Of a stretch of DNA of 64,000 bases, positions 3,830-57,036 are shown piece after piece (the first letter of the stretch is position 1; each line of letters starts with the position of its first letter). The translations under genes were made by a program, and so were the position numbers. The stretch is from positions 103,480,001 through 103,544,000 of the forward strand of contig NC_086107.1 in the NCBI RefSeq assembly GCF_963921235.1, in the 5' to 3' direction. The notes under the pieces were generated by a model. It was not told the DNA's origin, searched no databases, and saw only the letters and a list, made by a program, of their open reading frames with translations. The DNA comes from Mobula hypostoma. Its lineage: Eukaryota.

Positions 3830-4904
3830 TAAAGGATTCAAAGATTCAAAGTACATTTATTATCAAAGTATATATGCAGAATATAACTCTGAGATTCGTC
3901 TCCTGTAGGCAGCCACAAAACAAAGAAACACCATGGAACCTATTCAAGAAACATCAAACACACAGCATGCAAAGAACAAATTGCGTAAACGGCAAACAGC
4001 GAGCAAACAATACATAGAATATAAAACGTCAAACCAGCAGTCCAGTAGTACTCAGTTTAATTCAGTTCAGCGCCATGCCGCTAGCCCTCTGCAGGCTGCG
4101 GGGTCATTCTTGGCCAAAGTGCTCCAGTCTGCATTGATTGCCCCGATCAAACTGCTCAAAAACAGCAAAAAAAAGAGTATCCAGAATTCAGAAACACATT
4201 CAAAGTGAACCTTAAAGTCCCCAAAATGAGGCCACAGCCTTGCCGATCAATCTTTACAACATGGATCCCTAGACTCCTGCACTTCCCTCGGACAGCAACT
4301 AGTGAGGGGGGGAGGGAACGTCGACTCAGACCATGAGAGGCCTGCCTCGGGCATTTTCATGCCTTACAAGGCGTAGATTGGAAGTCTGTGTGGGGCGCCA
4401 CTCCTCACACAGACACTAGAGCAATGTGTGGTTAAGTGCCTTGCTCAAGGACACAAACACGCTGCCACAGCTGAGGCTCGAACTGGCGACCTTCAGATCA
4501 CTAGACGAACGCCTTAACCACTTGGCCACGTGCCCAACACAAGGGGGGAGGGGGAGAGGAAGACTGGTCAAACAGGCAGACAGTCCCAAACACCCACTCA
4601 TCCTCCGCTCTTGTCCACATCGACTTCAACCTTGCTGGATGCCTCAATCAGAGAGAAGCAATGGCGTTGAACATGGTCTCCAGGCTCCAGGCCCCAGGCC
4701 GCACACTCTGCTCCAAAGTTCATTGAACTCCCTCAGAGACAGCAAAGCACCAGATCGCTCACAATTAGCCCAAAATGTCAATCACAGGTTCCAATCTCAC
4801 GCAGCTTAGTTGTAGAATCATATTTGAAAGAAGAAGTAAAATAAGTAATTTTGTGAACTGTCTGCATGATGTAGCCATTGGTCACGTTCGTTGGCGCCAT
4901 CTTG
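3830..4904 (-). mobile_element. Non-autonomous Rex1/L2-like retroelement hosting a SINE
   Basis: Minus-strand 5' end CAAGATGGCGCC; (TTTGAATC)n-type tail with AATAAA; interrupted by the SINE at 4318-4541. Confidence 0.55.
4318..4541 (-). mobile_element. tRNA-derived SINE (family C)
   Basis: Minus head GGGCACGTGGCCAAGTGGTTAAGG (A box) and GTTCGAGCC (B box); flanking AGGGGGGAGGG-like direct repeat; head shared with 26969-27279. Confidence 0.75.
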
Positions 4905-11915: not shown

Positions 11916-12649
11916 CTTCTAATACTTAAGATGCCACATTCATGATGATCAGAAATGTAGGAGTGGTGGAAGCACATTAAGTATTAACAATTAAGTGGGA
12001 GTTAGAGAACATCAAAACTATTTGGAGGGCATATTTTAAAAGAGCACGGCAGTGGACGTAATTTGATAATGTTATCAAGAAACTTAACACGTCCAATAGA
12101 CCAAGCAGTTTTCCATACTGTAGGATTATGATTTTACATTGATGTTTACTTCATTCTTATTATTAGTTTTACTGATGCCACAATAAATTAAAATAGCTGT
12201 GAAAATGTAATTATAGCTGTGCTCTGCAGCTGGTAAGTCTATACACAAGAGCTTTATAAATAGATTGTATTGATGAGAGAAGTTGACCAATGACCTGCAT
12301 GGATGACATGAAGTTATATTTGGGTTGAGAGGCCATTTTCTTCCGTCTGATTAACTCTGACCTGAGGGGGCTTGGTTTTTGAATGAGATGCTTGTCAGTA
12401 AAAGCTTTCACTGGATTGAATAACTCATTGGACGTACCATCACTAGAATTTGCAAAGAGATCCTGATTGGAAACTCTTCAGATAAAAGCAAATGTAGAGA
12501 AGAAGCAGTCTTCTAGAAAGGTGATATATTAAAGCGTTGAAGTTTATTTTTGTTCACCATCTGCCTCCTGATGTTTGAGTCATTAGACCATTTCTCAGAG
12601 ACACTTTGCTTTGCGATCTGCCATGAAAAGCTATTTTAAAACATATTGC

Positions 12650-12772
12650 AAACAAGAGAAAATCTTCAGATACTGGAAATCCAAGGGTCTTGGCCCGAAA
12701 CATGGACGTACTCTTTTTCATAGATTCTGCCTGGCTTGCTGAGTTCCTCCAGTATTTTGTGTGTGTTGCTCA
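12650..12772. mobile_element. Penelope-like insertion made of an inverted tail piece plus a forward body
   Basis: 12-bp TSD AAAACATATTGC (12638-12649) / AAAACGTATTGC (12773-12784); remnant AAGGGTCTTGGCCCGAAAC hammerhead half. Confidence 0.75.
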
Positions 12773-15899: not shown

Positions 15900-16050
15900 A
15901 AAGCAACACGCACAGCACGCTAGAGGAACTCAGCAGGTTGGGCAGCATCCATGGAAACGTTTCCACGGATGCTGCCCAACCTGCTGAGTTCCTCCAGCGT
16001 GTTGTGCGTGTTGCTTTGACCCCAACATCTGCAGAGTATTTTGTGTTTAC
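15900..16050. mobile_element. Penelope-like fold-back palindrome (59-bp arms, 3 mismatches, no spacer) plus tail
   Basis: Arms 15900-15958 and 15959-16017; 14-bp TSD GACTCATTTTAAAG at 15890-15903 and 16051-16064. Confidence 0.85.
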
Positions 16051-17880: not shown

Positions 17881-18038
17881 AAACAACAGGAATTCTGCAG
17901 ATGCTGGAAATTCAAGCAACACACATCAAAGTTGCTGGTGAACGCAGCAGGCCAAGCAGCATCTATAGGAAGAGGCCTCTTCCTATAGATGCTGCTTGGC
18001 CTGCTGCGTTCACCAGCAACTTTGATGTGTGTTGCTTG
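17881..18038. mobile_element. Penelope-like perfect 126-bp palindrome plus 32-nt tail
   Basis: 17913-17975 is the exact reverse complement of 17976-18038; TSD TTGTATCCAAATGTA at 17867-17881 and 18036-18050. Confidence 0.9.
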
Positions 18039-19482: not shown

Positions 19483-22400
19483 TTACATTAAATGAAAATA
19501 TCGAATAAAAGGTCCCCAAATCTGTTCAAATTTAAATGAAGAATCATAAAGGTTACTTCTAATTTTCTCCAGATTCAAACATAAAATCGTCTGAGAAAAC
19601 CAAAAAAAGGTAGTTGGAGCATTAAGCTCTTTCCAATGTTGTAAAATACATCTTTTCGCCATTAAAGTAAGAAATGCAATCATTCTACGGGCTGAAGGGG
19701 AAAGATTACTAGAAATTTTAGGTAGTCCAAAGATAGCAGTAATAGGGTGAGGAGAGATATCTATATTTAATACCTTAGAAATAATATTGAAAATATCTCT
19801 CCAAAAAGTTTCCAAAGTAGGGCAAGACCAAAACATATGAGTTAAAGAGGCTATCTGCCCCGAACATCTATCACAGAAAGGATTAATATGCGAGTAAAAA
19901 CGCGCTAACTTATCTTTGGACATATGTGCTCTATGCACCACTTTAAATTGAATTAGGGAATGTTTAGCACAAATAGAGGAAGTATTAACTAATTGTAAAA
20001 TCTGCCCCCAATCATCCACAGAAATGGTAAGCCCCAATTCCTGTTCCCAATCTACCCTAATCTTATCAAATGGAGCTTTCCTGAGTTTCATAATAATATT
20101 ATAAATCATAGCCGATGCACCTTTCTGACATGGATTAAGGTTAATTATCGAATCTAAAATATATATAGGAGGAAGCATTGGAAAGGAAGGAAGTATAGTA
20201 CTTAGAAAATTTCTAACTTGTAAATATCTAAAAAAATGTATTCTTGATAGGTTATATTTATTAGATAATTGTTCAAAAGACATAAGGGAACCATCTAAAA
20301 ATAAATCCAAAAACCGTAAAATACCCTTAGTCTTCCAAGTTTGAAAAGCGCGATCCGTAAAAGAGGGAGGAAAAAATATGTTACCTAAAATAGGAATCGC
20401 TAACCCGAATTGATTAAGATCAAAAAATTTTCTGAATTGAAACCAAATACGCAAAGCATATTTAACGATCGGGTTAGAGACCTGCTTAAGGCGTTTCGAA
20501 TCAAAAGGAAGAGATGAACCTAAAATAGAACCAAGTGTATAACCCTGAACAGATTGTAATTCCAATGCTACCCATTTAGGAATAGATAGTATATCCCGGT
20601 CAAGTAACCAAAATTTCATATGTCGAATATTAATAGCCCAATAATAAAATCTAAAGTTAGGTAATGCTAAACCTCCATCTCTCTTAGCTTTCTGTAAATG
20701 TATTTTACCCAGTCTCGGATTCTTATTCTGCCAAATAAATGAAGAAATTTTAGAGTCGACTTTATCAAAAAAAGATTTAGGAACGAAAATTGGTAATGCC
20801 TGAAACACATATAAAAATTTTGGCAAAAAAAACATCTTAACTGCATTAATACGACCAATCAAAGTTAAATATAAAGGAAACCATTTAGATGAAAGTTGAG
20901 TAATATGGTCTATTAATGGTAAAAAGTTAGTCTTAAATAAATCTTTATGTTTACAAGTAATTTTAATCCCAAGATATGAAAGGTAATTATTAATCAATTT
21001 AAATGGAAATTTATAATATAAGGGAAGATGTTTATTAATCGGAAAAAGTTCACTCTTACTAAGATTTAATTTATAACCTGAGAAAAGACCAAATTGTGCT
21101 AATAACTCTAAAACAGCAGGAATAGATCTCTCAGGATTAGAAATATATAAAAGTAAATCATCAGCATAGAGTGATAATTTATGGGACTTTAATCCCCGAG
21201 TTATCCCAGTAATATTTGAAGATTCTCGAATAGCAATTGCAAGAGGTTCTAATGCAATATCAAATAATAGGGGACTAAGAGGACAGCCTTGTCGAGTACC
21301 ACGAAAGAGAGGAAAAAAAGGTGAGTTTAAAGAGTTAGTACGAACCGAGGCTACAGGGGAGTGATATAACAGTTTAATCCAGGATATAAATTTCAGGCTA
21401 AAATTAAACATTTCAAGCACCTTAAATAAATAAGGCCATTCTACTCTATCAAAAGCTTTCTCGGCATCTAAAGAAATAACACACTCAGGAACATTTTGTG
21501 AGGGAGTATAAACGATATTTAACAATGTACGAATATTATAAAAAGAGTAACGACCTTTAATAAAACCCGTTTGGTCTTCCGAAATAATAGAAGGAAGTAC
21601 TTTTTCTAGTCTATTTGCTAATAACTTAGAAAAAACTTTAGAATCAACATTTAATAAAGATATTGGTCTATAAGATGCACATTGAGCAGGGTCTTTATCC
21701 TTCTTTAGTATTAAAGAAATTGATGCTCTATTAAAAGATTCCGGAAGTTTACCAAGTTTCAAAGAAGCCTCAAAAACCTTATAGAGCCAAGGAATCAATA
21801 AAGAAGCAAAACATTTATAAAATTCAACGGTAAACCCATCAGGGCCAGGAGCTTTCCCCAGATTCATAGAAAAAATAACATTCTTAATCTCATCCATTGT
21901 AATGGAAGTATCTAATAAAGAAGACATATCCTGTGAAATCTGAGGAAAGTCTAACTTATCTAAAAAATCATTCATATATTTAGAATCTCGAGGAGACTCC
22001 GATTGATATAAAGAAGAATAAAAATCACAAAAGGTTTGATTAATCCCCACATGATCCAATATCAATCGATCATTTTGGTTATAAATCTGATTGATTTGAG
22101 ATTTAACATAATTAGATTTCAATTGATTAGCCAGCAACTTGCCAATTTTATCACTGTGAACATAAAAATCACTTCTTGTTTTCTTTAATTGGTTTACAAT
22201 CGAGGACGAGAGTAGTAAACTGTGTTCCATTTGGAGTTCAGTTCTTTGTTTGTATAGCTCCTCAGAAGGAGCCATAACATATTTCTTATCAATTTCTTTA
22301 ATCTTGTCCACAATTGCCATCTCCTCCTGCTTCTGTTTCTTCCTCAAAGCAACGGAATACGAAATAATCTGACCCCGAATATAGGCTTTAAAAGTGTCCC

Positions 22401-23259
22401 AAAGAGTGTTAACCGAAATATCTTCTGTATGGTTAATTATAAAAAAAAGCTCAATCTGTTCATTCATAAAATTAACAAAGTCCGAGTCCTGAAGCAACAG
22501 CGAATTAAAACGCCATTGTCTATTGTTTGGTATATTGGCCATAATTTTAATAGAAAGCTTAAGTGGAGCATGATCCGAAATGGTTATAGAATCATAATCA
22601 CATTTAATCACTGAAGGAATGAGACGAGAATCAATAAAAAAATAATCAATTCTTGAATAGGAATGATGAACATGTGAAAAAAAGGAAAAATCTTTTTCCT
22701 GAGGATGCAGAAAACGCCAAATATCCGTCGACCCAGAATCAGAAAGGAAAAAATTAATCAAATTTGCAGATTTATTAGGTAAAGTCCGTAAAGGAGCCGA
22801 ACGGTCCAAAGCTGGAGATAAACAGGTATTAAGATCTCCGCCCCAAATCAATGAAAACTCGTTCAAATTCGGAAACTGATCAAACAATGATTTATAAAAT
22901 TCCGGACAATCCATATTAGGAGCATAAACATTAACCAAAACTACTTTTTTATTAAATAGTAAACCACTAACCAATAAAAATCTACCATTCGGATCAGAGA
23001 TAATATCCTGTTGTATAAAAGTAACTGAGGAATCTATAAAAATAGAGACGCCTCGAATCTTAGCATTGGAGTTCGAATGAAATTGTTGGCCCTTCCAGAA
23101 TTTGAAAAAACGTAGTCTGTCCCCCCTCCGTACATGGGTCTCTTGTAAAAATAAAATTTGTGCTTTAAGTCTCCGGAACACTTTAAAAACTTTTTTTCTT
23201 TTAATAGGATGATTAAGACCATTAGTATTCCAGGAGACAAAATTAATAATAGACTCCAT
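19483..23259 (-). CDS. L1 ORF2p: APE endonuclease, reverse transcriptase and C-terminal CCHC (1258 aa from MESIINF)
   Basis: SWNTNGLN, LQETH, YAPN, GGDLN, SRIDY, SDHAP; GPDGF, YRPISLLN, DAEKAFD, QGCPLSP, LYADD, YLGI; CDRC-X8-H-X4-C. Confidence 0.96.
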   Translation of the reverse strand: MESIINFVSWNTNGLNHPIKRKKVFKVFRRLKAQILFLQETHVRRGDRLRFFKFWKGQQFHSNSNAKIRGVSIFIDSSVTFIQQDIISDPNGRFLLVSGLLFNKKVVLVNVYAPNMDCPEFYKSLFDQFPNLNEFSLIWGGDLNTCLSPALDRSAPLRTLPNKSANLINFFLSDSGSTDIWRFLHPQEKDFSFFSHVHHSYSRIDYFFIDSRLIPSVIKCDYDSITISDHAPLKLSIKIMANIPNNRQWRFNSLLLQDSDFVNFMNEQIELFFIINHTEDISVNTLWDTFKAYIRGQIISYSVALRKKQKQEEMAIVDKIKEIDKKYVMAPSEELYKQRTELQMEHSLLLSSSIVNQLKKTRSDFYVHSDKIGKLLANQLKSNYVKSQINQIYNQNDRLILDHVGINQTFCDFYSSLYQSESPRDSKYMNDFLDKLDFPQISQDMSSLLDTSITMDEIKNVIFSMNLGKAPGPDGFTVEFYKCFASLLIPWLYKVFEASLKLGKLPESFNRASISLILKKDKDPAQCASYRPISLLNVDSKVFSKLLANRLEKVLPSIISEDQTGFIKGRYSFYNIRTLLNIVYTPSQNVPECVISLDAEKAFDRVEWPYLFKVLEMFNFSLKFISWIKLLYHSPVASVRTNSLNSPFFPLFRGTRQGCPLSPLLFDIALEPLAIAIRESSNITGITRGLKSHKLSLYADDLLLYISNPERSIPAVLELLAQFGLFSGYKLNLSKSELFPINKHLPLYYKFPFKLINNYLSYLGIKITCKHKDLFKTNFLPLIDHITQLSSKWFPLYLTLIGRINAVKMFFLPKFLYVFQALPIFVPKSFFDKVDSKISSFIWQNKNPRLGKIHLQKAKRDGGLALPNFRFYYWAINIRHMKFWLLDRDILSIPKWVALELQSVQGYTLGSILGSSLPFDSKRLKQVSNPIVKYALRIWFQFRKFFDLNQFGLAIPILGNIFFPPSFTDRAFQTWKTKGILRFLDLFLDGSLMSFEQLSNKYNLSRIHFFRYLQVRNFLSTILPSFPMLPPIYILDSIINLNPCQKGASAMIYNIIMKLRKAPFDKIRVDWEQELGLTISVDDWGQILQLVNTSSICAKHSLIQFKVVHRAHMSKDKLARFYSHINPFCDRCSGQIASLTHMFWSCPTLETFWRDIFNIISKVLNIDISPHPITAIFGLPKISSNLSPSARRMIAFLTLMAKRCILQHWKELNAPTTFFWFSQTILCLNLEKIRSNLYDSSFKFEQIWGPFIRYFHLM

Positions 23260-23981
23260 AAATCCTAAAGTCAACCCACAACAAGGAGGATTGACAATAG
23301 GCGCGACCCACAAACCCGGAGAGGAAACAGAACATACAAAAGATACCGGGGAAAAGGACGCAACCAGTACTTCAATAATGTATATAGCCCAAAGAAAAAC
23401 AAACTAAAACGTGAAGCCCCTCCCGCCACCCCCCAACCCAAGATCCCAAGGCAAAATCTAAAGCAGACCCGCCAGAAAGAAGCAAGCGCTAAAACTACCC
23501 CCATGACTTCCGGTATACGCTCCCTAAAAAAAAGGTATAAATATGAAAAGGATCAGCTAATTGTAAAACAGTAAAAAAATAAGTAAAAAAAAGTTAGCTC
23601 AATTAGAATACACACAGAACAGAACAAAAGCCGGAAAATATATATTAAAAAAAAACCACAATAAACCTCAAACTCATGAATAGACACAGCAACAAAAAAA
23701 ATAGGATTATTAACATAAAGTGATTATAAAAAGCAAAACAGAATAAAATTTAAACAAAAACTACAAAATTTAAGGCCGCACAGGAAATACGTAAGATGAC
23801 AAAAGGGAAGTAACCACCCAGAATCCCCTGGGAAAAGAAAGAAATGACGCAGTTAAAAAGAAAGTTTAGTAGCCATATTAAGAAATCGAAAGTAAACTTT
23901 TCTGCCCAAATAGGGCACAGAAAAGTTAAAACCAACCAATTCACAGCCTCCGATCGACGGAGAAAATTAAAAAGAAAGCAA

Positions 23982-24881
23982 TTAAGATGTTGGAGATGAA
24001 AGTTGATCCAGATAACTCTGGGCATCCGATGGAGAATCAAAAAAACGAAGGGCTCCATCTGACATGCGAATCCTTAGACGTGCAGGGTACAGCAGCGCTG
24101 GTCTTAAATCCCTCTTATAGAATTCCGACATCACGGATCTGTAACGGACCCGTTGGTCCCAGATTGGTTTACTGAAATCTTCCACGAATCGGAACTTAAG
24201 ATCCGAAAAATCAATGAAACCTTTAGATCGAGCGAATCGAAACAGTCTCTCCTTGTCTTGAAAGTAATGAAAACGTAAGATAACATGCCTAGGTCTATCT
24301 GACCTAGACGAGTATGATGGGATTCTGTGAACACGATCCAGTAGCGGTGGTTGGTCAGGAAATACAGTAGGGAATGCATCTTTTAAAAGTTGGGAGAAAT
24401 ATTTCATGGGGTTGTTACCTTCAACGGCTTCCCTCACGCCAATCATTCGTAAATTCTGCCGTCGCATTCTAGATTCCAAGTCAGAGTTTTTAAAAGTCAA
24501 AAAGTCAAGTTTCTTCTTCATTACATTAATTGTTTCTTCGATTTTCCCCATCTTAAGCTCACTTTGTTGCGCGAATTTTTGAAGATCAGATATAGCCGAC
24601 TGATGTTCCGCAATACATGTTTGCATCTTATCAATTAAATCGGCAATTTTCTGGAAATTAGTTGAGATTTCCGTATGAATCAGGTCTTTAACAAAGCCTG
24701 CAATTTCCGTACGAATCATCTCCCTAACAGAGGTTGAAATTTCCCTCTGAATTAACTCCGATATCGCTTTCAAAGTCACCGGTGATTCAGTCGGAGGGAG
24801 ATCCGTAGCTTTCGGTTTAACCGGAGGTTTACCATCCTTGCCGTCTTTCTCGTTCTTAGACATAGCAGATCTAAGTTCCAT
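23982..24881 (-). CDS. L1 ORF1p (coiled coil, RRM, CTD; Transposase_22-like), 299 aa
   Basis: Heptad-rich region, then LESRMRRQNLRMIGVRE, LDRVHRI, RPRHVILRF, EDFS, LYPARLRI motifs typical of vertebrate L1 ORF1. Confidence 0.93.
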   Translation of the reverse strand: MELRSAMSKNEKDGKDGKPPVKPKATDLPPTESPVTLKAISELIQREISTSVREMIRTEIAGFVKDLIHTEISTNFQKIADLIDKMQTCIAEHQSAISDLQKFAQQSELKMGKIEETINVMKKKLDFLTFKNSDLESRMRRQNLRMIGVREAVEGNNPMKYFSQLLKDAFPTVFPDQPPLLDRVHRIPSYSSRSDRPRHVILRFHYFQDKERLFRFARSKGFIDFSDLKFRFVEDFSKPIWDQRVRYRSVMSEFYKRDLRPALLYPARLRIRMSDGALRFFDSPSDAQSYLDQLSSPTS

Positions 24882-25038
24882 CCAGTTGTCGGAGAATTCA
24901 GTTTAATTCAAAGTATTGTAAGAGTTGATGCCTTAATGGTTAATTAAAGTATAGCTGACCATAGAGAAAAAAAAAACTCAGAGGTAATGGAGCGAGTCAA
25001 GAACGCGACTTCACTCCATGAGCGCTACCGGAAGTTCC

Positions 25039-25750: not shown

Positions 25751-26138
25751 TAATTCATGTAATCATTGTTTCAGACTTAAATACAACTTCCACATTAGTA
25801 GGGGATCTTCTGGCAATTTGCGTTATTGGACAGAGTGTGTTGGAAGATGATTTGGTAGATGACCATTGTCTTTCATTGTTCTTCGGTTTTTACTTACAGC
25901 TTTCTCTCTGTGTCCATTAGCAGTTGCCTTCTGCAGTCTAAACCTCAACTTATACTTTCAGTGGCCACTTTATTAGGTACACCTGTACACCTGCTCATTA
26001 ATGCAAACATCTAATCTGCCAATCATGTGGCAGCAACTCAATGCATAAAAGCATGCAGATATTGTCGAGAGGTTCATTTGTCATTCAGACTAAACATCAG
26101 AATGGCAAAGAAATGTAACCTAAGTGACTTTGTCCGTG

Positions 26139-26654
26139 AACAAATCTCTTACTAACTCTTCCTTCAGTTAGTCCTGACAAAGGGTCTTGGCCTGAAACGT
26201 CGACTGTACCTCTTCCTAGAGATGCTGCCTGGCCTGCTGCGTTCACCAGCGACTTTGGTGTGTGTTGCTTGAGTTTCCAGCATCTGCAGAATTCCTCTTG
26301 TTTGCATTTTTAAAATTTACTACTGCGAAGCCTCTTTCGGTGATGCCTACACCGAAGAAGTTTAGATCCTCTCTTCGACGGGAGTTCAGTGAAACCATCT
26401 CTCACTGCTCCCCATCTGTAATTTCTTCGGCTCTTCAACTTTTCGACCACATTTTGACTCAGACTCGCTATCACAGCCATATATCTTCTCTTATATTTTG
26501 GATCTCCCCCTCCCCCTCCCACTTTCAAATCTCTTACTAACTCTTCCTTCAGTTAGTCCTGACGAAGGGTCTCGGCCTGAAACGTCGACTGTACCTCTTC
26601 CTAGAGATGCTGCCTGGCCTGCTGCGTTCCCCAGCAACTTTGATGTGTGTTGCT
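26139..26654 (+). mobile_element. Internally deleted Penelope-like element with tandem pseudo-LTRs (385-nt period)
   Basis: Direct repeats 26141-26272 and 26526-26657; ORF start MPTPKKFRSS...RYHSHIS at 26343; 14-bp TSD TGACTTTGTCCGTG at 26125-26138 and 26655-26668. Confidence 0.85.
26554..26591 (+). ncRNA. Minimal type I hammerhead ribozyme, intact core
   Basis: Stem I TAGTC/GACTG, CTGACGA core, stem II AGG..CCT, GAA, palindromic ACGT stem III, predicted cleavage after GTC (26586); paralogue 26169-26206 has G8->A. Confidence 0.85.
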
Positions 26655-26968
26655 TGACTTTGTCCGTGGAATGATTGTTGGTTCTAAACAGGTTGGTTTG
26701 AGTATCTCAGAAACTGCTGATCTCCTGGGACTTTCACACACAGTGGTCCCTAGAGTTTACAGGGAACGTGCGAAAAACTAAAAACAAAATCTGGTAGGTG
26801 GCAGTTCTGTGGGCAAAGACGACTTGTCTTTGAGAGGGGTCAGGGGAGAATGACCAGACTGGTTCAAGCTGACAGTAACTCAAATAAACATATGTTACAA
26901 CAGTGGTGTGCAGAGAATATCTGGGGTACAGCAGCAGAGCCAACGAACATACACTCAGTGTTACTTTA

Positions 26969-27279
26969 TTTATAAAGGCATCCGTTAGTCTTGCGAGACC
27001 ATGGATCTGGGCCTGGAAAGTCTTCACCCTCCAGGGCCTGGGCAAGGTTGTATGGAAGACCAGCAGTTGCCCATGCTGCAAGTCTCCCCACTCCACCACA
27101 CCGATGTTGTCCAAGGGAAGGGCATTAGGACCCATACAACTTGGCACCAGTGTTGTCGCAGAGCATTTTGTGATTAAGTGCCTTGCTCAAGGACACAACA
27201 CGTTGCCTCAGCTGGGGCTCGAACTCACGACCTTCAGGTCGCTACTCCAATGCCTTAACCACTTGGCCACGTGCCCACA
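26969..27279 (-). mobile_element. tRNA-derived SINE (family C head)
   Basis: Minus head GGGCACGTGGCCAAGTGGTTAAGG, GAGTTCGAGCCC; TSD TTACTTTA at 26961-26968 and 27280-27287. Confidence 0.8.
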
Positions 27280-28224
27280 TTACTTTAAGTACCTAATAAA
27301 GTGGCCACTGAGTGTAGCTACTTCACTAAACCTTTTCTTTTTTAATCTATATTTTAAGTATCTTGATCTTTGTAAGTTATTCAATTTTACGGGTGTGCTT
27401 GTTACTACCATTTATTTCCCAAACTGATTGCGCCTGAGGTGGTAGTCATGAGTTGCCACCTAGATATACCTCGTGACTTGGAGGAGGATGTTATGTTTTG
27501 TAACCCCAAACTATAAAATTAATTTGAAGAAAAAGACGGGAGCTCAAGTTAGGAGAGTGTTAATTTTTTCTTTACTTTAAGAGAGGCACACACTTATCAC
27601 ATGGTAGTGCCATGGCACATTCAATTCACGTATTTTTACATAGAACCCATAATGAATTATTTAATCAAATAAAGAATGCTTAATCAACAACATATTTACA
27701 ATATTACTCAAATATTACTGATAATGCGTAAAGGAACAGAGGAGTTCCAGGATTTAGACCCAGCTACCATGTTCCCCCATTAGGTTAATGTGTGATTTGA
27801 AGGGGAGTGTGCAGGTGTCCACACCTCCCTCCTGCCATTGCTCGGTGGTAGAAGTCACCCAATTTGAGAAGTACTAAATGAGTAATTGAAGTGCATTTTA
27901 TAGGGAATAGTGGGTTGAAGCTGATGCATAGAATGGCTTCCACTGGGTTGAATCAACCTAGAAGGTTTTCAGCTTGTCTTGGCGGCCCTCATCCGGACAA
28001 GTAGAATTTTCCGTTGTGCTCCTAATTTGTGTCTTATAGATATGCTGGAGATTTTGAAGTGACAGTAGGTGTATCAGGTGCTACTAGATAACCAACTTAT
28101 GCCTGGCTCTTGTAGTCACAGTATTTATGTGGCTGGTCCACTTTTTAATGAAATTGAATCTATTGATTCGGAGTCCTATATTGTAACTTGGAATCTAAAG
28201 TAGTGTTGTAGCATGGTTTTCCTT

Positions 28225-42329: not shown

Positions 42330-42395
42330 TATTGCAACTGAAGCTTCAGCAACGGCGGACGCGTGAAGAGCTGGCCAGCCAGGGAATCATGCCAC
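42330..42395 (+). CDS. MRTFA: MRTF-A (MKL1) internal exon encoding the first RPEL actin-binding motif
   Basis: Pyrimidine tract + CAG acceptor, GTAAGT donor, 66 nt phase 1/1, translates (V)LQLKLQQRRTREELASQGIMP(P); LKL..TREEL is closer to MRTFA than to MRTFB or myocardin (LRL..EQL). Confidence 0.93.
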
Positions 42396-46028: not shown

Positions 46029-47020
46029 CTTTTTGCAAGCTTTAAGCTTTGGGATACTTTACACTGTCTCATTAGCAAACTAAAATGCTTAATTCTGAGT
46101 ACAGATGGTCAAAATGAATGTTTAAAGCAGAAGTATTAACAGCAGACTATTCATTACAAGAGGTCAGCCTGCAGTTCTGCACGGTGGACACTAGCCATCT
46201 GATGTATGTATCCCCCACTGATTTAGCTGCTGGATTGCAGAACCATCGACTGCCCTCAGCTGTTAAAGGTAAATTTTATTTTCATTGTGTATTATAAACC
46301 TAAAATATAATGGCGCATATAGATTTGACAAAGATAAGCAAGGCTGACGAGTAATGTGGACGCTGCAAGCAATTATAACGCAGACGTCCATGCTAATGAG
46401 AAGGAATAAAGCACAAGAGTGGTTTGTCTGCAAGTTGTGCTTCTAGACTAAGGGAAATAAGTATTGGGAAAAAGAGATATACATTGACTAACTGGTTGAG
46501 AAACACCCCTTGCACAGAGATTGTTGTGCCAATGTTTTTCTTTGAACATCTATCTTTGGTAAGATTTCCCCTATCAAGAGAAAAGACCCTGGTGTTCAAA
46601 CTGCTTTTTTTTTAAGAAAGCAGTTTCAATCTATTTTTGATTTTATGGGCTTTAGTTGTTAATGAAGCAAATTGGTTGGGCGTTAACCTGTGGTATCCTG
46701 AACTTTGTTGTACTCATTGAACACACTTATCTGCATGATTTTGTGCTGTGCCTCCGACTGCCGGGAAGCTGACGGTAACCCTCAGTGCAACCCTAATGCT
46801 GCTGAACCTCTGCTTCCTGGGGTGGATGTAAAAGATTTCATCACTTGGTTCCAGGCACAGCAGTGTGTTCTGATGTCTTTTTCCCCCCTTAGTAAACATA
46901 AGTCATAGTCATACTTTATTGATCCCGGGGGAAATTGGTTTTCGTTACAGTTGCACCATAAATAACAAATAGTAATAGAACCATAAACAGTTAAATAGAA
47001 AAGGAGTAATCAGGACATTT

Positions 47021-47592
47021 ATACACTCAATGGCCACTTTGTTACATACGCCTGTACACCTGATGGCTAATCCAAATGTCTAATCAGCCAATCACATGAC
47101 AGCAACTCAAAAGCATAAAAGCACAACAGATGTGGTCAAGAGGTTCACTTGTTCAGATTAAACATCAGATTGGGGAAGAAATGTGATCTAAGTAACTTTG
47201 ACTGTGGAATGATTGTAGGTACCAGCTGGGGTGGTTTGAGTATCTTAGAAACTGCTGATCGTCTGGAAATTTCACACACAACAATCTCTAGGGTTTACAG
47301 AGAATGGTGCGAAAAACAAAAAATAACATCCAGCGAACGGCAGTTCTGTGGGTGAAAACATCTTGTTAATGAGAGAGGTCAGAGGAGAATGGCCAGACTG
47401 TTTCAAGCTTACAGGAGGGCGATAGTAACTCAGATAACCTCAAGTTACGACAGTGTTGTGTAGAAGAGCATCTCTGAACACATAAGATGTTGAACCTTGA
47501 AGTGGATGGACTACAGCAGCAGAAGACTACAAACGCTCAGTGGCCACTTTATTAGGTACAGAAGCTACCTAATAAAGTGGCCACTGAGACTA
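47021..47592 (+). mobile_element. Non-autonomous Tc1 element with an HTH remnant
   Basis: TIRs CACTCARTGGCCACTTT / AAAGTGGCCACTGAG; GKKCDLSNFDCGMIVG..ISRVYREW (ORF 47149..47355). Confidence 0.85.
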
Positions 47593-48597
47593 TATCATTG
47601 GATATCCTTGCTGCTTGTGTGAATAGCAGTTTTCTTTGAATTCTAAAAGTAAATGTACTTAAAAAATTAAGAAATAAAAATAGAAAATCCTGGAACCATT
47701 CAGCAGATTGGGTACATTTTGTTGATGTGTCTCAGACCTGAAACTTTAACTCTTTTCTCAAGTGTTTCTAGCACGTTCTGTTTTGCTTTTAGATTTCCAG
47801 CATCTCAGTTTGCACTTTTAAAAATAATTGGTGGTAAAGTGGATTAGGACATACAAGGTTGTGAAATGATCATTGTAAGGTCAATTCATTCTTCCTCTTT
47901 CTCTCTGTCCTAAGAAAACTGACTTGGAGTGAAGCTTTGATACTCGTGCAGTAATTGATCTATTTACCCTTGGGTAGGAAAGGAAGATCCAGGGAGTGAC
48001 CTTTCAGTCTCTGGCTAGCAACTGGTGGGATCGATCTGCCTGCCTTAATGAAATGGATTTGTGTTCATTGTTTCTGAGAATAGACAACACCTCTGAAGGG
48101 GTCCTGAAATTGAAGGATGTGCAATATGAAACTGAAAATACAGTATGTTGTGTGTTTGTACAGTTGGATACCAGGTCTGTGGCTACAGAAAGTCATTTTC
48201 CAAAAAACTTAACATCTGGGGGTATTGTCCCACTAAGATGTTTTTTATTTTAAAAAATCCCTTTCAAATAAAAGATCCCATGTTAAAAACCCTAAAATTC
48301 AGGGTAATGGTGGGAAAATACCTGATATTATAAGCATCTTTTGGTGACTGTTTATTGAAAGTTCACTAGCCAACCTATCATGAAAGTAACACATTGATTC
48401 ATATTTAAGTTGCTATTGCAAATCATCTGTACTAGGAAACAGCCACTATGTAGGTTCTTCCCCAGTGGAGCATCCAGAGGAAACCCACGAGGTCATGGGG
48501 AGACTGAGAAACTTACAGAGGAAACCCATGCCAAAATGGGGAGAACGTACAAACACCTTTCAGACAGTGGTGGGAATTGAACCTGGGTCGTTGTATA

Positions 48598-56810: not shown

Positions 56811-57036
56811 CAACATACATCAAAGTTGCTGGTGAACGCAGCAGGCCAAGCAGCATCTATAGGAAGAGGCGCAGTCGACGTTTCAGGCCGAGACCCTTCG
56901 TCAGGACTAACGAAGGGTCTCGGCCTGAAACGTCGACTGCGCCTCTTCCTATAGATGCTGCTTGGCCTGCTGCGTTCACCAGCAACTTTGATGTATGTTG
57001 CTTGAACTTCCAGCATCTGCAGAATTCCTGTTGTTT
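56811..57036. mobile_element. Penelope-like fold-back insertion: perfect 90-bp arms, 10-nt loop, 36-nt tail
   Basis: 56811-56900 is the exact reverse complement of 56911-57000; TSD TTGTTTCTACAGT at 56798-56810 and 57037-57049. Confidence 0.92.
56872..56909 (-). ncRNA. Minimal type I hammerhead ribozyme, intact core
   Basis: Minus strand TAGTC-CTGACGA-AGGGTCTCGGCCT-GAA-ACGT-C-GACTG, identical to 26554-26591. Confidence 0.85.

Follow-up and report, generated by a model that had tools for sequence, protein, structure and literature searches.

A short two-hammerhead insertion derived from a Penelope-like element in Mobula hypostoma

The window analysed here is the whole 64-kb stretch of Mobula hypostoma DNA, and its region 26125-26668 carries an insert of 519 nt which, by sequence comparison, corresponds to 1.34 copies of a 385-nt unit. 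The insert, whose features are described on the plus strand, sits within an older MITE-like element (25953..27316) that we take to be Tc1/mariner-like. This host MITE is bounded by 28-nt terminal inverted repeats (25953-25980 and 27289-27316) and has a paralog at 47020-47594, with which it is identical at 345 of 448 positions once the insert is removed. At 47537-47594 the paralog ends in two facing copies of its terminal repeat, which make a short palindrome. A second insertion in the host MITE, presumably SINE-like, occupies 26969-27279 between 8-bp direct repeats (TTACTTTA), and related sequence (87%) is found at 4418-4536.

The initial annotation placed the insert within a clean 14-bp target-site duplication (TSD). 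The 14-mer TGACTTTGTCCGTG is present at 26125-26138 and again at 26655-26668, with all 14 positions identical, and the chance of a given 14-mer is about 4e-9. The duplication is real, because the paralogous MITE at 47020-47594 represents the empty site, holding TGACTTTGTCCGTG once with both flanks contiguous. The word clean requires refinement at each border. The final 3 nt of the downstream repeat (TGA) are common to the element and the target, and two extra nucleotides, AA at 26139-26140, lie at the 5' junction, where they are probably untemplated, as the unit has TT at the matching 26524-26525.

Two direct repeats 385 nt apart make up much of the insert, as had been annotated. They extend over 136 nt (26141-26276 and 26526-26661) at 96% identity, which rules out chance repeats. 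Their element-derived part, described earlier as about 132 nt with about five mismatches, spans 26141-26272 and 26526-26657 and contains exactly five differences (26179, 26188, 26245, 26251 and 26258 against their partners), giving 127/132 identical positions. The upstream copy is a pseudo-LTR, a terminal repeat truncated at its 5' end, and the downstream copy stops at the family's usual 3' end (GTTGCTTGA). A repeat copy at 17882-18038 has its 3' end at the same place, also with a 3-nt overlap. Both repeats of the insert carry the identical letter at 8 of the 8 family-polymorphic sites examined, for which the product of shares is 0.064, a loose figure. Two unrelated insertions side by side are ruled out by the one TSD and the shared subfamily letters, and asymmetric decay between the repeats was rejected (4 against 1 changes, p 0.375).

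The family was followed in contigs of four public runs (X1, X5, X9 and X12, which are 4 of 24 runs and cover three coded organisms; X9 is RNA by guess only) using positions 26277-26960 at 85% likeness. Those considered individually were 32 of 205,442 pieces (the longest, none of which comes from this locus), 15 of 487 joints and 24 of 2,149 loose ends. In the four runs the repeat has a summed depth 101, 202, 400 and 184 times that of the ORF start, a ratio that is not a copy number and that fits massive 5' truncation. The joint 26657->26277, at which the repeat end runs into the 5'UTR, was found in 25, 22, 4 and 4 contigs, and because it occurs in all four runs, the succession of repeat, UTR and ORF is the normal tandem junction of the family. 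The optional tail and the 5'UTR occupy 26273..26342, and summed depth drops steeply across 26277-26345. Among 40 of 71 letter differences, the letters of the insert at 26353, 26365 and 26369 are the majority in X1 and X5 and reach at most 7% in X12, a pattern that places the insert in a young subfamily. The contig sequences point to a Penelope-like family that is very abundant and has been recently active.

Decay of the insert amounts to about 6-8 changes in 517 nt, or ~1-1.5%, on the basis of 40 of the 71 letter differences. Four of the changes lie in the first repeat and two near the junction, and the remaining two are at 26337 and 26630, where the letters differ from nearly all of the family depth among those 40 differences. 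With the TSD matching at 14/14, this low level of sequence decay indicates that the insert is young. The TSD bounds a single insertion of Penelope-like origin, from which nearly all of the ORF is missing.

Further repeat fragments of the family number four in the window, and two of these are fold-back insertions with TSDs of 13 and 15 bp, whose arms reach either the tail end or a point at, or a few bases from, the usual 3' end. The fold-back insertion at 56811-57036 has a 13-bp TSD, with one arm near the usual 3' end and the other stopping at the tail end; its minus arm has an intact hammerhead core, and its subfamily letters differ from those of the flagged insert. The one at 17882-18038 (TSD 12-15 bp) turns just downstream of the hammerhead position, and so is without a ribozyme. 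The fragments at 12633-12770 and 15900-16045 are older or related-family fold-back repeats, about 76-79% alike.

A minimal hammerhead had been noticed in each repeat, and both copies have the sequence anatomy expected of the minimal type I motif, a call based on comparing motif anatomy with the description in PMC4209133. Each repeat has in order a 4-5 bp stem I with one G.U pair, a CUGANGA box, an unpaired A and a weak stem II, followed by GAAA, the palindrome ACGU and the cut-site C. Hammerhead 1 (26169..26206, predicted cut after 26201) reads CTGACAA and bears the annotated CpG-type G8->A change, G8A, at 26179. Hammerhead 2 lies at 26554..26591, with CTGACGA at 26559-26565, GAAA at 26579-26582 and a predicted cut after 26586. 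Its description as intact is right for the core, which is complete, but not for stem II, where U at 11.1 replaces the conserved G10.1-C11.1, a pair conserved in minimal Penelope hammerheads (PMC4209133). Position 11.1 is U in both hammerheads, which leaves stem II with a G.U closing pair or as a 3-bp stem. Neither hammerhead was recognised by Rfam at either threshold.

At 26578, position 11.1 of hammerhead 2, C accounts for 32% of family depth in X1 and 83% in X12. The subfamily dominant in X1 has U at position 11.1 (26578, 26193; 68% of depth), and C prevails in the more distant organism. That a subfamily with a weaker stem II has been successful hints that cleavage is not under strong selection.

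A nested fold with 22 standard pairs can be drawn for the double hammerhead, and this fold would need a dimer. The minimum-energy fold contains 0 of the 22 hammerhead pairs, a weak result as the model omits core contacts, and constraining the RNA to the double hammerhead carries a penalty of 26.8 kcal/mol that is uncalibrated and given little weight. The present copy would be unable to release a monomer, because in the cis-dimer core 1 serves site 2 and carries G8A; the base-pairing topology predicts that this substitution blocks release. Published work on related ribozymes includes an anole Penelope element in which G8C abolished cleavage and no RNA-seq reads ended at the hammerhead cut site (PMC11167929). 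Minimal hammerheads are described as cleaving poorly even as dimers (PMC4209133), and one of nine predicted Xenopus hammerhead dimers was cut in vitro (bioRxiv 2026.07.22.740005).

The segment following the 5'UTR had been read as roughly the first 49 codons of an ORF, and an ATG at 26343 does open 48 codons (26343..26486) with relatives in sharks. A profile search with these codons gave nine matches. Seven are shark proteins of one family, six of which start at the same Met, and the other two (P0001 and P0009) were dropped as repetitive false matches. Six relatives were aligned, with P0007 left out. The shark proteins are 48-58% identical to the ORF start, and judged by these comparisons the ORF fragment is genuine. 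Read-through beyond the junction meets a stop at 26538-26540 and gives a 65-aa product; it is absent from the protein collection and has no homologue of near length there, which is a weak test. No match was obtained in a word-based search with the 48 aa and no usable match in the Atlas, and among 72 and 28 pattern matches to the ORF alignment in viral and prokaryote contigs, no relative was confirmed.

Pfam searches of the shark relatives gave no RT and no GIY-YIG match. Searches with P0008 gave no RT-bearing relative, and its Atlas match was to DUF8422; its terminal stretch we take, by eye, to resemble the pre-RT DKG motif. P0008, a whale shark gene model, breaks off near codon 42-46 and resumes ~100 residues later, which reflects either an internally deleted copy or a gene-model artefact. 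As there is no domain match, the Penelope assignment draws on the ribozyme together with terminal structure and patterns of insertion.

On the minus strand, 1.2 kb from the flagged insert, a LINE occupies 19483-24902; it looks young and possibly intact, its two long open frames measure 306 aa and 1306 aa from stop to stop, and it is presumably L1-like, judged by its motifs. The insert had also been described as sense to its host gene. A single host exon could be identified in the window, the RPEL1 exon of an MKL1/MRTF-A-like gene at 42330..42395 on the plus strand (Pfam RPEL, E 7e-6), which begins with a split codon and has 21 of 22 residues identical to MKL1 in PDB 2v51. The orientation stands, as this exon is on the same strand. 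The intronic position is indirect, because no exon upstream of the RPEL1 exon was found within the 64-kb window, and the insert likely lies in an intron of the MKL1/MRTF-A-like gene.

The Penelope-like traits present are a pseudo-LTR partial tandem, a minimal hammerhead with palindromic stem III, an optional 30-40 nt tail, 5' truncation, inverted forms and variable TSD. Endonuclease Penelope-like elements (Cervera and De la Pena 2014, PMC4209133; Craig et al. 2021, PMC8557442) have in common with the insert and its family a minimal type I hammerhead in which the base after A9 is unpaired and stem III carries the ACGT palindrome, partial-tandem repeats, an optional tail, the inverted forms of the window and heavy 5' truncation; insertions of such elements are described as partial tandems with an optional tail (PMC8557442). 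Because the terminal repeat normally continues into the 5'UTR and ORF start, two hammerheads in a direct repeat are the ordinary layout, and only their short spacing is unusual in the insert: 385 nt, against about 3 kb in those elements. The insert differs from them also in its mere 48 ORF codons and in the G.U at 10.1-11.1, and the RT/GIY-YIG of the parent was not recovered.

The anole element PAc (Poseidon, Anolis carolinensis; Frangieh et al. 2024, PMC11167929) has been studied in vitro. Its reverse transcription starts inside the RNA at two sites bounding the tail, its protein needs the ORF start downstream of the initiation site, and its hammerhead mutants insert normally (PMC11167929). 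Like PAc, the family studied here has two preferred 3' ends with a short tail between them, and a hammerhead near the repeat-ORF junction; by analogy, the two ends are consistent with internal initiation as in PAc. The hammerhead and 3' ends lie upstream of the ATG here, whereas in PAc they lie in the ORF start.

In the insert the ORF start is joined to the family 3' region upstream of the repeat, which family contigs identify at 26484..26525. The junction is placed at 26484 because the family's own 3' region continues upstream there. Loose ends before 26495 number 258, 162, 29 and 84 contigs in the four runs (among 24 of 2,149 loose ends), and in them other members continue upstream with their own 3' region through ...CCTGTCTTCTCC, ending ...CCTGTCTTCTCCTATC. 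One contig tracks the ORF side to 26485, and the residue after codon 48 is Phe in five of six aligned relatives. A TCTT microhomology at the junction (26484..26487) is therefore probable, its 5' side being reconstructed from the shark relatives and not from family DNA. Splicing was rejected as the cause of the gap on the evidence of its 3' side, since the family sequence upstream of the 3' segment ends CCTG, not AG.

No second copy of the junction was found in the 64-kb window, and no contig bridges it among the 32 listed of 205,442, where a junction-only contig would be ~70 nt, shorter than any listed. The exact junction pattern gave 0 matches in JGI metagenome contigs, and the hammerhead-repeat pattern 0 each in viral, prokaryote and metagenome contigs, none of which is a place where vertebrate DNA is expected, so that these blanks carry no information about copy number. 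For the junction to be repeated, the upstream copy would have had to extend 42 nt further, so the insert holds no internal proof of a pre-shortened template. Positions 26484-26657 and 26273-26483 form one contiguous stretch of the natural repeat-to-ORF tandem junction.

On balance we favour a one-off insertion by the abundant Penelope-like family in which a template jump, made in the course of target-primed reverse transcription, shortened the copy. A staggered target cut produced the 14-bp duplication inside the older MITE, and cDNA synthesis would have started at the family's usual internal site (26657), helped by the 3-nt target match. After 174 nt the enzyme would have jumped at the TCTT microhomology to ORF codon 48, either by skipping forward past the remaining ORF, with a tandem or circular full-length RNA as template, or by looping back on the same RNA to sequence 215 nt downstream from where synthesis began. 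Both jumps would give the same sequence, because 26484-26657 and 26273-26483 are contiguous in the natural junction, and the insert can equally be described as the product of an ORF-middle deletion or of a 385-nt duplication, the sequence being identical. Copying proceeded through the 5'UTR and a further 132 nt of repeat sequence before ending at 26141, which left 1.34 copies of the 385-nt unit with two hammerheads; these have since decayed by ~1-1.5%, including G8A.

The single TSD and the verified empty site favour this template jump, and the 3' end and the TSD length match those of other family copies in the window. The run from repeat to 5'UTR is general in the family, a partial tandem with an optional tail is the described norm, and the 8/8 shared polymorphic letters fit a single source. 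Neither end of the insert is a ribozyme end, because the insert runs on for 71 nt beyond cut site 2 and begins 61 nt upstream of cut site 1. A weak hint comes from joints of the same topology with other breakpoints in the family contigs. Among 15 of 487 joints these are 26296->26605 (depth 221, X1), 26302->26631 (X1 and X5) and 26304->26541 (X9); their short sides measure 20-28 nt, and such joints can arise from other repeats. In them the tail end is joined inside the repeat, which hints at very short head-to-tail units, possibly amplified mini-tandems. At the 26296->26605 joint the depth reaches 221, compared with 5-41 in the long DNA pieces listed, and its unit contains no hammerhead at all.

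Several points tell against the template jump. The 5' side of the microhomology depends on shark proteins that are 48-58% identical, and a 1.34-unit insert with near-identical repeats is also what copying round a 385-nt circle would be expected to leave. Any cis signals that mobilisation in trans requires may be present in the retained piece, and the joint of depth 221 suggests that some short units do multiply.

It is possible, though unlikely, that the element arrived here as a full-length partial tandem and that a microhomology-mediated DNA deletion removed its middle afterwards. Deletions of this kind disable many Penelope copies in Adineta vaga (PMC3846280), a 2.8-kb deletion within the ORF is known for a Chlamys copy (PMC8557442), and the putative TCTT overlap with two further changes beside the junction would fit repair. 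The Adineta vaga Pen2 derivative (PMC3846280) and Chlamys-3_cRei (PMC8557442) resemble the insert in keeping both ends, with microhomology, an interrupted ORF and a TSD; unlike them, the insert is far smaller and retrozyme-sized, with its hammerheads brought close, and was possibly shortened at insertion. Against a later deletion, copies with an ORF start are rare, with summed depth 100-400x below the repeat (not a copy number), and an insert as young as this one (~1-1.5% decay, TSD 14/14) would have left little time for a multi-kb deletion.

Less credible still is descent from an already shortened tandem master, copied from an uncleaved linear transcript by the protein of intact elements, which would make a non-autonomous Penelope family with the ribozyme as a passenger. 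Non-autonomous Penelope-like families with pLTRs and head-to-tail copies exist (MRC1 and others, PMC8557442). Repeat, tail and 145 nt of the ORF start are all retained in the unit; the anole element requires the first 172 nt of its ORF, and uncleaved RNA is its main substrate (PMC11167929). Against such a master, the junction occurs once in the insert and has no second copy in the 64-kb window.

The most doubtful origin is the one that the initial annotation had proposed, in which an ancestral RNA was cut by the double hammerhead to a 385-nt monomer, circularised and reverse-transcribed 1.34 times in trans. The hypothetical monomer (26202..26586, between the predicted cut sites, 47% GC), together with the long TSD and type I hammerheads, fits animal retrozymes (PMC7229834), and the nested fold of 22 standard pairs can be drawn. 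In one chondrichthyan genome the average length of retrozyme families is 363 bp, and in Xenopus 24 of 57 such families match known elements, nearly all Penelope (bioRxiv 2026.07.22.740005); PMC4209133 proposes circles for Penelope elements in general. A linear copy without a signal downstream of its 3' repeat would moreover need a circle or tandem for further movement. Against this, Tandem Repeats Finder detected no tandem array, only one hammerhead core is complete, the minimum-energy fold has none of the 22 pairs (weak, as core contacts are omitted from the model), and the subfamily that is the majority in X1 has G.U in place of G10.1-C11.1. The poor cleavage of minimal hammerheads, the single Xenopus dimer cut of nine and the lack of anole reads at the cut site point the same way.

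Nor is the circle exceptional in its folding. At -80.2 kcal/mol it has a z of -1.13, 15 of 100 shuffles fold as well, and 56% of it is paired against 52% in shuffles. A self-processed ancestral monomer or circle is accordingly unsupported: the layout is that of an ordinary partial tandem, its ends are off the cut sites, the junction is not repeated (42 nt short), the circle is not unusually self-paired, and hammerhead cleavage is dispensable for insertion in one Penelope element in vitro (PMC11167929).

Of the proposal that the insert is a retrozyme arising from a Penelope-like element, what is supported is a single insert with nearly all of the ORF missing and two minimal hammerheads; the 385-nt circle mobilised in trans is not supported. 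Non-LTR retrozymes of animals (Cervera and de la Pena 2020, PMC7229834; Li, Clavereau and Pollet 2026, bioRxiv 10.64898/2026.07.22.740005) resemble it in their 150-450 bp unit, type I hammerheads in a direct repeat, a GC content under 50%, a TSD >4 bp, the lack of a complete protein and derivation from Penelope terminal repeats. All the retrozyme features of size (~150-450 bp), composition (GC under 50%), TSD (>4 bp) and missing complete protein are seen in the insert. It differs from these retrozymes in being 1.34 units long with no array, in having minimal hammerheads with one core mutated, in keeping a recognisable ORF start and in showing no highly self-paired fold.

A retrozyme tandem with at least two consecutive complete-hammerhead units is absent, the insert having 1.34 units with G8A in the first core. 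A canonical type I hammerhead, which with its stem III and loop 1-loop 2 contacts forms part of the retrozyme description in PMC7229834, is also absent: there is no stem III loop, stem I has 4-5 bp and 10.1-11.1 is G.U. The bioRxiv study 2026.07.22.740005 admits minimal motifs among retrozymes too. Animal retrozyme circles are described as highly self-paired with canonical hammerheads (PMC7229834), and a highly self-paired circular monomer is not borne out by the comparison of the fold with shuffles. In size and shape the insert is like a retrozyme, but a single origin is most likely, and that it is a mobile retrozyme is improbable.

A literature search, mostly without subscription journals, returned no paper on short two-hammerhead Penelope units in rays, none on template jumps as the origin of such units and no biochemistry of this family. 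The kind of parent, its hammerhead and shortened copies have already been described, and a single decayed insertion matters little in itself. That retrozymes arise from Penelope terminal repeats has already been proposed in print, and for their birth in animals at the level of single events the insert is a useful test case.

We think it doubtful, if conceivable, that the insert is the offspring of a mobile 385-nt unit, and so a snapshot of retrozyme birth by way of a loop-back jump, dimer cleavage, a circle and copying in trans. If this were true, one loop-back jump would bring together, within a unit of retrozyme size, two hammerheads, an initiation site and the ORF start that binds the protein, and the huge family would throw off units with many breakpoints, some of them amplifying. 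This would provide a base-level route from Penelope-like elements to retrozymes, which in bioRxiv 2026.07.22.740005 is inferred only from phylogeny.
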